This document shows positions 58,660 through 64,000 of a DNA stretch of 64,000 nucleotides, piece by piece. A program made the position numbers and the translations under genes. Position 1 is the stretch's first letter. Each line of letters opens with the position of its first letter. Under the pieces are notes generated by a model. The model was not told where the DNA came from, ran no database searches, and saw only the letters and a program-made list of their open reading frames with translations. The stretch is from a plasmid. The stretch is taken from sequence record NZ_CP145666.1; one strand, 5' to 3'.

Positions 58660-58812
58660 GTCACCGGTGCTCCGATTTCGACATGATGCATACCAACCAG
58701 ACTCACTACTGTTGTCATCGACAAGAATGACAACAGTAGTGAGTATCTATGGCTTATCCTCGGAAAACAGCCCATTATTCATGCCTCCCTCTTCCGGTAT
58801 GGCATAGCTCAC

Positions 58813-59532
58813 ATGGCTTCAGATAAAAATCAAACCGATAAACTCGCCCGCGATATTAAAGACAAGGTTCTCGCCAGGCCTGCTGGCTCATCAGGAGAAC
58901 CAGTGGAGTACCGGAGTGTCCATGAATTTATGACACTAACCCGCACGGGAACCCCTGCTGATGCCCGCCAGTTCCGGCTGGCTGTTAAAGCTAAGGGAAT
59001 AGCTATCTGGCCTGATGATGACCCACGCGTAGGGCAGCAATTTGCACGTGACGGCATTCGCTGGGAAGTTCGTCTGAAGACCTTCCGGCCTGAGAGTCAG
59101 GATTCATTTGACGATGACCTGGATGAGAAAGTCTCACCAAAACGCTTTGGATATCGCCGGTACGGTGCGATGTCCCGTCCTGATCAGAAGAAATTCAGCG
59201 ACAGGGTATACTTCAACTGCATGGAGCGGTGTGTCGTCACCGGTGTGAAGACAAAATGCAGGGGAGAAGCAGCACATCTGATTGAGCATCATAAAGCGGG
59301 CTCTGACCACTGGAGTAATGGCCTGTGGCTTCGGGCAGACATACATCGGTTATACGACAACGGCCTGTGTGTGATTAATCCCAGCACCCTGACAATCCAT
59401 TTCCACCCCACTATCCTGGCTAAGGATGACGATCTCATCGCGTATGAAGCTCGGCCAATATTACCGACAAGAAAACCTGTAAACCCTGCCTGGTTAAAAT
59501 CCCGGTGGGATGAACTTACCTGGCCGAAGTAA
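58813..59532 (+). CDS. HNH-nuclease-domain protein; paralogue of the 30960 gene
   Basis: VVTGVKTKCRGEAAHLIEHH...NGLWLRADIHRLYDNG. Confidence 0.55.
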   Translation: MASDKNQTDKLARDIKDKVLARPAGSSGEPVEYRSVHEFMTLTRTGTPADARQFRLAVKAKGIAIWPDDDPRVGQQFARDGIRWEVRLKTFRPESQDSFDDDLDEKVSPKRFGYRRYGAMSRPDQKKFSDRVYFNCMERCVVTGVKTKCRGEAAHLIEHHKAGSDHWSNGLWLRADIHRLYDNGLCVINPSTLTIHFHPTILAKDDDLIAYEARPILPTRKPVNPAWLKSRWDELTWPK

Positions 59533-59539
59533 GCATCGT

Positions 59540-61000
59540 GTCTGACAACGGTAGTGAGGCCTAATCATTACCGTTGTCGTAGCAAACGGGCTTCAATGCT
59601 TGGCTCATTATCGTTGTCACCAGTCTGGTCAGCTCATAACTATTGCCATCGGCACTGAGATGCCGTCCTGCGCATCGAACTCACATCCATTGTCACTCGA
59701 TTTTTGAATCTGCCGGGAGTGTAACCAGTGACAATGGTAATGATCACCTTCACATAATTAACGAACCGTTACTACTGGTAAGAGGGTGCATGGTCGACAA
59801 CGGTAATGACAATTAAGGAAAGTACCTTTCTGTAATGACAACGGTAGTGACTTAATGGTTAACCCTTGTCTGGTTACCGGCAATCAAGTACAGGAACTAT
59901 GACAATGGTAGTGAGTCATTACCATTGTTATGGCTCATCATACTATCCCTATATACAGCAAGTAGACGGCGTTGCTCACTACCATCGTCATTGGTTGCAT
60001 GGGTAGCAGAATGTTAGATGACAACAGTAGTGATTCTGGTGCTTCACCATCCGCCTGGTGACAACGGTAATGAGTGATCGAGATCACTATCGTTGTCGCA
60101 GCGTTCGGTATGGCTACAACCGGCAAGTTGTGCCTCGACAATGGTTGTGATCCCGCACTCACTTGATTCGTCATCGCCGGAACGACCCCACTGAAATGTA
60201 CTTGGAAACGATGACAATGGTAGAGACTTGAAAAAATCACATCCATTGTCATTGACCAATCAGGTTAGCTACGACAGCGGTTGGACTCATTTCCATTGTC
60301 ACCGACAGGCCATGTATTCATACAACGACAACGACAGGGAGTGACGCGGTCACTACCACGGTCATTCATCCCGCCCCTCAAGTACGAGCAGACAGTACGG
60401 CGAGTGAATCCTTACCATAGCTACCTGAAAGGCCTGATTAACCTGGAATGCATATGACAACGGTAATGACCAACAGAACTCATTTCCGTTGTCATTGTGC
60501 TGGTGGAGCAGTAAGAACTTGGTCTGAATCATGAATGACAACGGTAGTGAGTATTCTTAGTCAATACAGTGGTCATTCAAATGCGCCGGGAGCAAATGAC
60601 AGCGGTAGTGAGTCAAATCACTCATTACCGTTGTCATTGTGTCATGGGAATCAGCGATAAATCCGTACTGACGATGCCGACAATGGTAGTGAGCGGTATG
60701 AGGTCTTCTCCGAGAAGCTGCTCTGGAGAGTTGTCGATGATGACAACAGCAGTGAGCTGCCAAGACTCATTGCCGATGTCATGGTGTCATGGGTATCAGC
60801 GATTTGTCTGTACCGGCGATTCCGACAATGGTAGTGAGCGGTGTAAGACCTTCCCTGAGAAGCTGGTCTGGAGAGATGTCGATGATGACAACAGTAGTGA
60901 GCTATCTAGTCTCATTACCATTGTCATGAGTGGTCACCCCGCAATGACAACAGTAGTGACCGCGTCACTCAATACCGTTGTCATTAAGCTAAACAGGATT
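59540..61000. repeat. iteron array: ~35 copies of TGACAA(C/T)GGTAGTGA in both orientations, often as inverted pairs, including two ~150-bp tandem units (copy-control locus downstream of repA)
   Basis: Counted directly in the sequence; the same 14-bp core recurs upstream of repA. Confidence 0.8.
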
Positions 61001-61060
61001 CTCTGACGATGTGCAGGGAGGGAGGGTTCCAGGCCGTCATCTGACAGCCCGGAGGGAATG

Positions 61061-62179
61061 CTAGCTGGCGGGATTGTTCTTTTTCTGGCTTCTAAGGCTG
61101 CGAATGTAGTGAAGTTCTTCAGCTGTTAAGTCATGGATGGTTAACGTTTCATCCCCATCAATGGGCTCATCTGGTGGGCACAATTCACCTTCCAGTGGCT
61201 CACCATTATTTTTACCCGACGTGCCATTGTTCTCCTCATCAGCATCACCCTCGCCATCACCATCAGGTGGTGGTTGGATATTGTTCAGATTCAAATCAGG
61301 ATCGCGTTTGTGGATCTGGAAATAAACCTTCCCATCTTTTTTTACTTCGGTGTACTGAAGGTAACCAATGGATGCCAGCTCCTCCAATGCCTTACGTACT
61401 GTGGCGTTCTGGCTGTTGGCACGGGTCTTAAGATTTAATCGGTTCTTAAGTCTCGTTAAGGAGATCGGGATTGGATTTGGTGGAAGTGACTCAATGAACG
61501 TGTAAAGCGCCTGTGCGCTCTCTTTTTTCGCCAGTTCCTTGATAGCCTTCAGCTGCATCAAAACCTTGTGGTCGTACTGATACAACTCGAATATCTTAGG
61601 GTCTATCTGTAGCTCTACCTGATCAGAGTCCGGGTCAAGCAAGGCAGACTGCACCAGGTGCGTCGTATACACCTTTGACGAGTGGGTGCTGGTGAAGGAC
61701 AACATCACGGATGCCAGCCTGCGTAACGACGCGTCGATACGCTTACGGGATGCGGTAGAGGAACGATAATTTTCAGGGTTACAGAGCTTCAGAAACTCAG
61801 TAAATTTGAGGCTGATCTTATCGTTATCAATCGGATGGTTAGCTAGCGTTCGGATGATTCCCATCCACGTTTTGAAGTCAACAGACATATCGAGGCGCTG
61901 ACCCACGATCGAGATATTGGTGAAACCCTCGCTCTCCATCAAAGAAAGTGTCTGTAGTTCTTTCGTGGCATCAAAGCCAACAGTTTTGTATTCACGACTC
62001 TGACGGCCAACGCTTTTTGGTGATGGCACAAACAACCCAAGGCGCATGAGCGCGATAGACTGAACCGTCCTGCTGCTATTAGGACGTAAAATAATTTCTT
62101 TACCTGTCTCTCTCTCTGTTACAGAGAAAGCCCTGGTAACCATCTGGCCTTGCTGCTCAGAATCTTTCTCATTGGTCAT
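61061..62179 (-). CDS. repA: plasmid replication initiator (RepA-like, iteron-binding)
   Basis: 372-aa minus-strand ORF flanked on both sides by iterons and AT-rich or GATC-rich origin-like DNA; start uncertain (62179 or 62143). Confidence 0.65.
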   Translation of the reverse strand: MTNEKDSEQQGQMVTRAFSVTERETGKEIILRPNSSRTVQSIALMRLGLFVPSPKSVGRQSREYKTVGFDATKELQTLSLMESEGFTNISIVGQRLDMSVDFKTWMGIIRTLANHPIDNDKISLKFTEFLKLCNPENYRSSTASRKRIDASLRRLASVMLSFTSTHSSKVYTTHLVQSALLDPDSDQVELQIDPKIFELYQYDHKVLMQLKAIKELAKKESAQALYTFIESLPPNPIPISLTRLKNRLNLKTRANSQNATVRKALEELASIGYLQYTEVKKDGKVYFQIHKRDPDLNLNNIQPPPDGDGEGDADEENNGTSGKNNGEPLEGELCPPDEPIDGDETLTIHDLTAEELHYIRSLRSQKKNNPAS

Positions 62180-62400
62180 AGTGGTTTATCGACTGTATTA
62201 ATCAACAGATTATTGAATACTATCGCCCAAAGCCCTCAGTGTCACTTAAGGGATCTCTGCGACGATCTCAGATTGTGCATAAGTCCAGGCTAAAAAAACG
62301 CCACGACTAAATATAAAACTCTGAAATTCACATAAAAACAAATACATACGTAGTTTATCAACAAAGGATCAATTCCGGTGAAAAAGATCCTTTAAAAAAT

Positions 62401-62500
62401 CACTACCATTGTCGCCGCAATCACTACCGTTGTCAAAAAACTCACTACTACCGTTAAAAAACTCACTACCAATGTCAAAATAATCACTACCGTTGTCACC
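62401..62500. repeat. five phased iterons (CACTACCGTTGTCA-like, ~21-bp spacing), origin-proximal set 1
   Basis: ATCACTACCATTGTCG / ATCACTACCGTTGTCA / CTCACTACTACCGTTA / CTCACTACCAATGTCA / ATCACTACCGTTGTCA. Confidence 0.75.
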
Positions 62501-62817
62501 GATTGGCTTCCAGGCCTTGTGCCGTCTGGCTTCCGAGCTGCGGGGATCTCTTGTGATCTATGGGAACTCGTAAGGTACTAATTATTGGAACTACCTTGTG
62601 GAAAATGGGGATAAATTCTCTCTTCGAGTTAAATCAACATCGAATAGCTAAATTGTCGAAAATATGTACGGGCATGAAAGGAAAATGCGTATAGAAAACA
62701 GTGGATAAGATTTTAATAATTTTGTTTCATCATACAGGTGATAGATGGTATCTATATGAATTATAATAGAAATATACTCAAAACTCTTTAAGAGTTATAC
62801 CTTCAGATCACACAATA

Positions 62818-62925
62818 AAACTCACTACCATTGTCACAAATACTCACTACTAACGTCGAAATAGTCACTACCAATGTCATTTTAATCATTACCAATGTCA
62901 AAAAAGTCATTACCATTGTCATAAA
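62818..62925. repeat. five phased iterons, set 2 (a duplicate of set 1 plus the adjacent GGGATCTCT...TTGGAACT segment)
   Basis: The same iteron consensus is followed by a paralogous GATC-containing segment. Confidence 0.7.
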
Positions 62926-63042
62926 ATGCCCTTGAGCCCAGTAACCATGCGGCTTGCAGCGTACAGGGATCTCTTTTGTACTCCGTTGCACCTTTGGGAT
63001 CTCTTTATTGGAACTGTCCTGTGGAAAAGTATCTTTTTTGCC

Positions 63043-63090
63043 TTCGTCAGCTACTGACTCGGTGCTTTACTGATTGTGTAAACAAAACGA
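63043..63090 (+). promoter_or_regulatory. conserved promoter/leader motif, full copy
   Basis: TTCGTCAGC ... GTAAACAAAACGA; the ATG at 63105 lies 15 nt downstream. Confidence 0.5.
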
Positions 63091-63104
63091 TAAGAGGCAC
63101 TCAC

Positions 63105-63353
63105 ATGTACGCAACTGCAAAAGAAATTATCGCAAAGCTGCAAAAAATGAACCCTGACGAAAAGGTGCTAGTCCGTGTCTGGTACAAGTCTGATGTTCAG
63201 GAGTTAGCAATAGACCGAAACATGCCGCAGGTTTCAGCTAGCGAAGCTGAGTCGACCTTAGCGTTGATAGACCGAACTCACGATGGTGATATCGGTATCA
63301 ACTGGGATGTTGTTCAGAGTGGTATTGAGACAGTTCGTAGTGGCCAAATTTAA
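63105..63353 (+). CDS. hypothetical protein (82 aa)
   Basis: AAGAGG RBS; the track ORF start at 62976 is a non-ATG codon inside the origin repeats. Confidence 0.5.
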   Translation: MYATAKEIIAKLQKMNPDEKVLVRVWYKSDVQELAIDRNMPQVSASEAESTLALIDRTHDGDIGINWDVVQSGIETVRSGQI

Positions 63354-63924
63354 GCAACCGAGTAACAAGGACGTGACTCAACTAATCCACATATCCACCG
63401 GGTAGATCAACAGATCGATCCAGATTAAGACCAAATAGAACCAAAAAGATCCCCGCTCCCGCAAACCCGCAGCTGGTAAGCTCTGAAGACCTGCCCCGGT
63501 GGGGTTGAGAGGGAAAAAAGTGAGCTCTGAAGGGCTGTCGGTGGGGTTAGCCTGGTAGCTGGTGGTGTTCAAAGGGAATAACGGTGGGATTGGAAGGGGA
63601 AAGGAACTTAATTATCAACATCTGCTGTGCTAATGAAAACATCAAATAAAAACATAATCATACGTAACAAATCTCAAAAATAGGTGATCGGTATTCATTT
63701 TTTGTCCACACTGGCAGCAGATCAAAAATTTGATGTCAACGACATTTATCCGATTCATCTCTGAAATAACGTATTGATTTAGTACAAATAAAAACCAATA
63801 CCCGATAAATGGGGACTAAATGACCCCTATTTCTCATGATCAATAAAAATCACCGTGATACATTCGCCCGGACTGGGCATTCCAAGATACCCGGAAAATA
63901 ACAATAAAACTGGGGGATCCACAC

Positions 63925-64000
63925 GATGAACTCGAATGAAGTTCTTCTTTTCAAGGACGCTATTCCCGACTTCAATCAGCCGTCGACTGGAAAGCTGACG
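63925..64000 (+). CDS. 5' end of a gene truncated by the window end
   Basis: GGGGGA RBS followed by ATG; the frame is still open at the window end. Confidence 0.3.

Follow-up and report, generated by a model that had tools for sequence, protein, structure and literature searches.

A P1/RepHI2A-type iteron replicon with an expanded downstream array and a conserved duplicated origin core in an IncpKPC-CAV1321-type megaplasmid

Introduction

The 64-kb stretch of plasmid DNA analysed here (from sequence record NZ_CP145666.1; hereafter the window, to which all coordinates refer) carries, between 58.7 and 63.1 kb, a minus-strand repA gene set among repeats of one motif. An earlier note, made from the letters of the sequence, had read this region as a replication origin with an unusually large field of iterons downstream of repA and a duplicated iteron and GATC module upstream of it, and had proposed a stringent, handcuffing-type copy control with possibly two alternative origins. 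The locus raises the questions of what kind of replicon it is, what so many copies of one repeat are for, and whether both upstream modules are origins. We consider it probable, at roughly 85%, that the region from 59.5 to 63.05 kb is a basic replicon, one of two lying side by side in a conjugative megaplasmid of the IncpKPC-CAV1321 type, that it belongs to the P1/RepFIB/RepHI2A type, and that its downstream array serves copy control.

Plasmids of this group could at first not be typed by PlasmidFinder (PMC5604787), and their PlasmidFinder type is pKPC-CAV1321, not IncHI2 (PMC9769852, PMC12363196). Megaplasmids of the pKPC-CAV1321 type bear blaKPC, blaIMP-26 and mcr-9, and their hosts are Enterobacterales of clinical, animal, plant and wastewater origin (PMC12363196, PMC9769852). 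No description of the replicon anatomy of these plasmids was found in the literature that could be searched. Three lineages were compared in this work: the window itself; P0002/L015, with 94% RepA identity (the 94% lineage below); and IncHI2, with 85% RepA identity.

Results

A repA gene set among repeats of one motif

When the window was searched with TGACAAYGGTAGTGA, allowing up to three mismatches, 47 matches were obtained, as against a mean of 2.63 in shuffled sequences (maximum 8; none of 100 shuffles reached 47). Information content delimited a conserved unit of about 17-18 bp, aTGACAAYGGTAGTGAgt, and was zero outside it. In total, ten iterons (5 + 5) were placed upstream of repA and 32 downstream of it, together with two outlying copies. 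The overall observation of the earlier note was thereby borne out, with positions accurate to within a few bases. A search of the region against Rfam returned sub-threshold miRNA-hairpin matches only, which were chance matches on palindromic iteron pairs. The elements of the replicon are as follows.

61061-62179, minus strand: repA, encoding a 372-amino-acid (aa) iteron-type initiator of the P1 RepA/RepFIB/RepHI2 family
62400-62498, minus strand: proximal iteron block (incC equivalent), five iterons at 21-bp phase in repA orientation
62499-62614, minus strand: proximal origin core, with a GC-rich spacer, a GATC-heptamer region and tandem DnaA boxes
62620-62819, minus strand: AT-rich spacer between the modules, GC down to 23%, changing at the neutral rate except for one DnaA-like box
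62822-62921, minus strand: distal iteron block, paralogous to the proximal one and likewise with five iterons at 21-bp phase
62922-63028, minus strand: distal oriR-like core, with a conserved GC-rich spacer, GATC at 62968 and 62998, the heptamer GTTCCAATAA and one DnaA box
59543-60983, both orientations: downstream iteron field (incA-like control array), 32 iterons including 10 convergent pairs
60620-60928, no strand assigned: tandem duplication within the field (Tandem Repeats Finder, TRF: 145-bp period, 2.1 copies, 83% matches)

RepA is a WH1-WH2 initiator of the RepHI2 family

RepA was 85-86% identical over 371 residues, its full length, to the RepHI2 proteins of more than 1100 IncHI2 plasmids, which are annotated as 'IncHI-type plasmid replication initiator protein RepHI2', and 94% identical to the protein of the third lineage (P0002/L015). 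Identity reached about 60% with closer relatives in Morganella and Xenorhabdus, about 50-57% with the RepFIB-type RepA of plasmids and SSU5-like phage-plasmids, and 42% with phage P1 RepA over residues 31-298 (tblastn, E 4e-61). A protein-level search found P1, P7 and SSU5; megablast against phage genomes gave no match, and phmmer with RepA returned nothing meaningful. Since a RepA scan of genome contigs yielded IncHI2-type loci only, at 86% identity and with no graded relatives, outgroup replicons were retrieved one by one.

Among the aligned RepA homologues, Rep3_N (WH1) was matched in 19 of 22 and Rep3_C (WH2) in 14 of 22, and the closest folds in the PDB to an AlphaFold2 (AF2) model of RepA were RctB domains 2-3, the RepE dimer and a Rep WH1 domain. 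By these profile matches of its homologues and by its modelled fold, RepA is a Rep_3-type WH1-WH2 initiator. No significant sequence similarity was detected between RepA and either RepE or RctB. The protein is laid out as a WH1-WH2 core (residues ~65-293), an acidic, proline-rich linker of about 55 residues that is predicted to be disordered (294-351) and a conserved terminal helix (353-367). Compared with P1 RepA it has an extra tail of about 75 aa; the terminal helix of this tail (residues ~294-372, window 61061-61300) carries the motif LTxEELxxLxxxRxxKK, which is common to RepFIB-like initiators and missing from P1 RepA.

Two upstream modules match the P1 origin

TRF returned a 21-bp period in five copies for each upstream block; four of the five iterons in each match at up to three mismatches, the degenerate one lying at 62442 in the proximal block and at 62844 in the distal block. 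The two five-iteron modules of about 21-bp phase described in the earlier note were found at 62400-62498 and 62822-62921, and each is followed, as it had also stated, by a segment with GATC sites, two in either case (62545 and 62555 in the proximal core, together with degenerate GTTC/GTAC heptamers; 62968 and 62998 in the distal core). A further GATC lies on the opposite side of each block, at 62386 (proximal) and 62806 (distal), and 62180-63100 as a whole contains nine GATC sites where 3.1 are expected. The proximal core ends in tandem DnaA boxes, TTTTCCACA at 62597-62605 and TTATCCCCA at 62606-62614, while the distal module has a single box, TTTTCCACA at 63020-63028, which is degenerate in both sister lineages. 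These boxes inside the modules were not recognised in the earlier note, and the 'TTGGAACT' quoted there is complementary to a degenerate heptamer that has GTTC in place of GATC. As for the two DnaA-like boxes that had been proposed nearby, TTATCAACA is present at 62355-62363, a few bases from where it had been put, whereas TTGTCCACA, at 63702-63710, belongs to the origin region of the adjacent replicon. Between the modules, the DnaA-like box TTATCCACT / TTATCCAC(T) at 62700-62708 is invariant.

In the annotated P1 record a double DnaA site of 18 bp comes first, followed in turn by five Dam sites, a spacer, the five incC iterons with their 21-bp spacing, repA and nine incA iterons. Both modules of the window match P1 oriR element by element, with DnaA boxes, a GATC-heptamer region, a GC spacer and five 21-bp iterons, and there is a partial sequence match as well, ATTTATCCCCATTTTCCACAAGGTAGTTCCAATAATTAG...TAGATCACAAGAGATCCCC of the window aligning with ACTTATCCACATTATCCACTGGATAGATCCAATAATCAG...TAGATCCATATAGATCCCT of P1. 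The iteron sequence of P1 is unrelated to that found here. In P1, as here, control iterons of mixed orientation stand directly downstream of repA. The analogy with incC-repA-incA drawn in the earlier note therefore reflects true homology: RepA is 42% identical, the modules align with the annotated oriR, and the downstream block is at the incA position. The numbers differ, P1 having one origin module and 5 + 9 iterons, compared with two modules and 10 + 32 iterons (plus the two outlying) in the window. P1 oriR has five GATC heptamers, of which two in five keep GATC here; in the heptamers at 62545-62596 and 62967-63019, the two modules alike have GTTC/GTAC variants at three of five, and this is so in each of the three lineages.

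The duplicated module is old and conserved

Measured from the repA ATG, the iterons have offsets that agree to the base between the three lineages (-742, -721, -700 and -657; -319, -298, -256 and -235). Since the proximal and the distal module of the window are each orthologous to their own counterpart in IncHI2, the duplication predates the split of the lineages, and the 'duplicated origin core' of the earlier note is an old feature that all three lineages have kept.

The 4-fold degenerate sites of repA, taken as a neutral yardstick, are 61% identical between the window and L015 and 42% identical between the window and IncHI2. Against these values, and in the same order, identity was 97% and 85% in the proximal DnaA/heptamer part, 87% and 84% in the proximal iterons, 77% and 74% in the distal spacer, and 77% and 75% in the distal iterons. 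The AT-rich DNA between the modules was 58% and 40% identical, that is, neutral. A 46-bp block with the tandem DnaA boxes is invariant in the three lineages; conservation does not extend to the distal DnaA box or to one distal GATC, which the 94% lineage has lost. Because the identities lie far above those of the 4-fold sites, purifying selection is acting on both modules, and more strongly on the proximal than on the distal one.

The downstream field keeps its iterons while the DNA between them drifts

The field contains 32 iterons at up to three mismatches and 35-36 at up to four, so that the earlier count of roughly 35 was a fair one. Relative to the sense of repA, 15 are in '+' and 17 in '-' orientation. 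The inverted pairs reported for the field were recovered as ten convergent pairs, eight of which have a start-to-start spacing of 24-26 bp; this leaves a gap of 9-11 bp between 15-mers, and of about 6 bp with an iteron of 17-18 bp. The two tandem units of about 150 bp that had been placed at 60640-60940 are also present, as 145-bp units in a slightly different register: a second repeat search delimited them at 60620-60764 and 60765-60909, 84% identical and with three iterons each. Otherwise the spacings are irregular (61, 63, 81/82 and 145 bp), and the 145-bp period is the only tandem repeat.

BLASTN across the three lineages gave alignments to only about 180 bp past the repA stop. Beyond that point the spacers between iterons change at the neutral rate, and the field nevertheless holds 32 iterons in the window and 28 and 39 in the sister lineages, the majority of them in convergent pairs, with the 25-bp geometry of these pairs common to all three. 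Counts are steady within IncHI2, at 38-39 copies in eight loci from different host species. As the field can no longer be aligned and still has 28-39 iterons with the 25-bp geometry, what selection maintains is the iterons, in both number and pairing, and not the intervening DNA. GATC sites number 4 in the field of the window (5.6 expected), and 2 (5.3 expected) and 9 (7.4 expected) in the fields of the other two lineages; a regular Dam site in the 81-bp unit of IncHI2 was considered and dropped, because GATC is not enriched in the field of any lineage.

The large array is the norm in the RepHI2 clade

RepHI2A of IncHI2 (R478) is matched by RepA over its full length, including the long C-terminal tail, and has the same iteron consensus, a pair of upstream five-iteron modules whose offsets from the ATG equal those of the window, and a kilobase-scale downstream field with convergent pairs 25 bp apart. 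The IncHI2 field differs in being a regular 81-bp tandem array (about 10 copies) with 39 iterons over 1.8 kb, compared with an irregular one of 32 over 1.44 kb here, and its spacers have no alignable sequence with those of the window. In R478, twelve 80-81-bp 'long iterons' near repHI2, with a function backed by cloning, are reported by PMC8490738 and PMC4980987 (citing Page 2001 and Gilmour 2004), and on that account the large array is not new in kind. The replicon is thus real but of an essentially known kind, and the large array is the norm for the RepHI2 clade, not peculiar to the window.

Outside this clade, the RepFIB replicons (F/P307, IncFIB, SSU5-type phage-plasmids) have repA with iterons on both sides, as here, and the SSU5 and Morganella relatives also have their upstream iterons in two clusters. 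However, the downstream intergenic regions of the RepFIB, SSU5 and Morganella replicons measure 75-600 bp, with no kilobase-scale field. The same de novo k-mer search gave about 11-14 iterons in P1, about 7 in E. coli IncFIB, about 18 in SSU5 and about 9 in the Morganella relative, and the claim of 'far more control iterons' holds against P1 (14), RepFIB (7-11) and SSU5 (~18) alike. By these counts, the iteron expansion is specific to the RepHI2 clade. A more distant likeness, which is one of analogy only, exists with F ori2/RepE and with RctB/ori2 of Vibrio cholerae: the initiators have the WH1-WH2 fold in common with RepA, and both systems combine phased origin iterons with separate negative-control sites. 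The V. cholerae ori2 depends on Dam.

The repA leader, the outlying pair and the neighbouring genes

Three further features lie within or beside the replicon.

62250-62399, minus strand: leader/AT-rich segment between the proximal iterons and repA, GC 29% over 62300-62399
62217-62245, minus strand: promoter-like site GTGACA-17-TAGTAT, upstream of repA and clear of the iteron blocks, a consensus match only
58703-58742, no strand assigned: outlying divergent iteron pair, TCACTACTGTTGTCA N10 TGACAACAGTAGTGA, found in the 94% lineage as well

The P1 repA promoter is part of incC and stands about 57 bp from the ATG, whereas in this replicon the iterons are set apart from repA by 220 bp of AT-rich leader, which contains additional DnaA boxes and GATC sites. 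The GATC sites are at 62252, 62264, 62367 and 62386, and the DnaA boxes are TTATGCACA at 62274-62282 (minus) and the above-mentioned TTATCAACA (plus). TGTTGATAA and CTTATGCACA were invariant in alignment A4. A consensus scan, which is a weak test, did not find a P1-like rep promoter embedded in the origin iterons; a weaker match was present inside the iterons at 62436-62408, yet 230 bp from the ATG. Nor did the repA promoter show an inverted-repeat operator of the RepE kind. The AGTGACA at the predicted -35 position is invariant in the three lineages, which is only a hint at the route by which repA might be autoregulated.

The outlying pair is cut off from the field by a gene for an HNH_2-domain protein (58813-59532), which stands between the two both in the window and in the 94% lineage. 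IncHI2 has no HNH gene and its field is continuous. The HNH gene may have been inserted into the array, or the outlying pair, which is about 70 bp upstream of that gene, may serve RepA as an operator; a promoter scan around the pair revealed no convincing consensus promoter. In p705SK3_1, an IS21 element is located just upstream of the HNH gene (L001 3296-5265).

On the other side, an 82-aa open reading frame (ORF) at 63105-63353 (plus strand) lies between the two replicons and is absent from the IncHI2 counterpart. It matched nothing in Pfam or NCBIfam. Compared with the 94% lineage it has 71% amino acid identity, with 83% identity at codon positions 1 + 2 and 40% at position 3, and by this pattern it looks like a real gene. 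In IncHI2 (L004 3997-4032) an extra convergent pair with 21-bp spacing follows the distal module at a distance of about 260 bp; the window has no such pair, and its 82-aa ORF is at the equivalent position. The flanks of the two replicons differ in general, the IncHI2 rep having Ig-like-domain genes on both sides, compared with the HNH gene on one side and the 82-aa ORF and the second rep on the other side here.

The second P1-type replicon (63354-64000) adjoins the first and continues in L002 12050-13900. It has a GATC cluster at 63405-63448, DnaA-like boxes at 63383, 63612 and 63702, and 19-bp iterons, CGGTGGGRTTGAGAGGGAA, upstream of rep and, in both orientations, downstream of it. Its 288-aa Rep starts at 63927 and extends past the end of the window, and is 45% identical to P1 RepA and 37% to the RepA described here. 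Two paralogous P1-family replicons with different iteron specificity are thus found 1.7 kb apart.

The replicon belongs to IncpKPC-CAV1321-type plasmids

The 4.1-kb region was found at an identity of at least 99% in 106 plasmids, and at 100% in all 25 matches listed. The plasmids that carry it are of 190-400 kb, MOBH-type and for the most part from Citrobacter, and the backbone around the replicon encodes ParA/ParB, a DnaB-like helicase and toxin-antitoxin pairs. Among the carriers is pKPC_CAV1321-244 (CP011611), the reference of the 'IncpKPC-CAV1321' type (PMC12363196). Carriers have been typed as pKPC-CAV1321 or left without a type, not as IncHI2 (PMC5604787, PMC12363196). The plasmid family is IncpKPC-CAV1321. 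An IncHI4 identity (pNDM-CIT/pP10159-4-like) was dropped, as the first 12 kb of pP10159-4, the part inspected, carry one, different rep gene (291-aa Rep; the Rep proteins were not compared directly), its record is typed IncHI1B, and it is absent among the 25 matches listed for the 4.1-kb region.

Discussion

The element described here is a true iteron replicon of the P1/RepHI2A type, in which the control array is expanded and the origin core is present as a conserved duplication. How it would work can be proposed from the precedent of P1, F and R478, from which RepA binding, origin firing, handcuffing and Dam dependence are carried over by analogy. RepA monomers would bind the five iterons of an oriR-like module, which are two helical turns apart and therefore on one face of the helix, and DnaA would take the adjacent tandem boxes. 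The AT-rich, GATC-bearing DNA beside the DnaA boxes would then open and the host helicase would be loaded. The clustered GATC sites would make initiation sensitive to Dam methylation and to sequestration by SeqA, with a refractory period after initiation as in P1. The proximal module (62400-62614) is the most likely origin, and its distal paralogue (62822-63028) is probably functional too, whether it is a second or auxiliary origin or one more partner in handcuffing and regulation. The 1.45-kb block downstream of repA, with at least 32 RepA sites, would be the locus of copy control and incompatibility, equivalent to incA: RepA bound to the array would pair with RepA bound to the origin, by looping in cis or in trans between sister plasmids (handcuffing), and the array would also titrate the initiator. 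As control sites outnumber origin sites about threefold, a very low copy number would be expected, which would suit a plasmid of 200-400 kb. The 25-bp and 56-bp spacings of the field would place its sites on different faces of the helix, and would fit pairing better than wrapping.

Several points weigh against this reading or limit its reach. RepA by itself gave nothing above threshold in Pfam (E < 0.01) or NCBIfam (E < 0.1) and nothing meaningful in a profile search of PDB sequences, and its family was placed through homologues and fold comparison for that reason; the AF2 model used for the fold has only moderate confidence (mean predicted local distance difference test score, pLDDT, 64; core 70-94). 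The best repA promoter-like site, itself from a weak consensus scan, is about 155 bp from the nearest iteron, unlike in P1. With two of the five P1 heptamers keeping GATC, Dam dependence may be weaker, and the sequence suggests that dependence on Dam and SeqA is reduced or differently tuned compared with P1. Since a second P1-type replicon adjoins, the present one could be auxiliary or even silent in some hosts.

The alternatives concern the role of the second module and that of the field. It is conceivable, if on balance unlikely, that the replicon has dual origins, both oriR-like modules firing alternately or cooperatively as RepA-dependent origins about 420 bp apart. The duplication is older than the divergence of the three lineages, with both copies at identical offsets, the distal spacer and iterons are 74-77% conserved where neutral sites are at 40-42%, and the spacer between the modules, at 23% GC, contains the invariant DnaA-like box at 62700-62708. 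However, the distal module is without the invariant tandem DnaA boxes, having one box in the window that is degenerate in the sister lineages, and the 94% lineage has lost one of the distal GATC sites; an iteron cluster with a purely regulatory role would be conserved too, and two upstream iteron clusters also occur in SSU5 and in the Morganella plasmid. More doubtful still is the idea that control in the RepHI2 clade differs from that of P1 in kind, with both modules being origins, or one an origin and the other its obligatory partner in cis, and with an array of pre-paired convergent iterons. Tail-to-tail pairs at a fixed 25 bp would in that case hold two RepA molecules with their WH1 faces apposed, and such a 'pre-paired' sink would sequester or dimerise the initiator in cis, in place of the plain handcuffing of monomer-bound iterons; the outlying divergent pair by the HNH gene would be a RepE-operator-like dimer site tying the neighbouring gene to the level of RepA.

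As regards the field, we regard it as very unlikely that it consists of functionless, decaying tandem repeats of an amplified iteron unit, with only the upstream part of the replicon mattering. The regular 81-bp array of IncHI2 does appear scrambled in the window into spacings of 61, 63, 81 and 145 bp, and the field spacers do evolve neutrally, but at 42-61% identity of 4-fold sites unselected 15-mers would be gone, whereas 28-39 good copies and the 25-bp geometry persist in three lineages; the copy number is constant in the eight IncHI2 loci, and the version of the window recurs at 100% identity in the 25 plasmids listed and at an identity of at least 99% in 106. Scarcely any weight can be given to a centromere-like or plasmid-pairing partition site in place of replication control. 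Large low-copy plasmids need such a site, and long arrays of inverted motifs resemble some parS/parC centromeres; the repeat here, however, is the same 15-18-mer as the origin iterons of the adjacent initiator, the field is exactly at the incA position of the homologous P1, and no par gene lies beside it, the ParA/ParB genes being more than 20 kb off in the backbone. That the field codes for protein can be practically dismissed. A 145-aa ORF is present at 60569-61006, and CP026282 annotates its 3' part as a 'hypothetical protein' (60737-61006; L002 9438-9707), but the ORF is translated iterons with a recurrent MTTVVS, ORFs overlap on both strands, the stretch cannot be aligned with the 94% lineage, and most records have no annotation there. 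ORFs inside the field were accordingly rejected as genes, and the CP026282 annotation is almost certainly spurious. The reading of the field as the copy-control array of a P1/RepFIB/RepHI2A-type replicon is the one that we retain.

The general picture of iteron plasmid control is unchanged by these results. The placement of the replicon with P1 and RepHI2A, together with the map of its modules, DnaA boxes and array, is a basis for replicon typing and for the design of mini-replicons and curing vectors. It is likewise a basis for predicting incompatibility with IncHI2 plasmids, which have the same iteron consensus and an 85% identical RepA. The comparison of three lineages is a clean natural experiment, in which iterons and pair geometry are selected while the DNA between them drifts, and the conserved duplication of the origin offers a handle on the role of a second oriR copy in a P1-type replicon.

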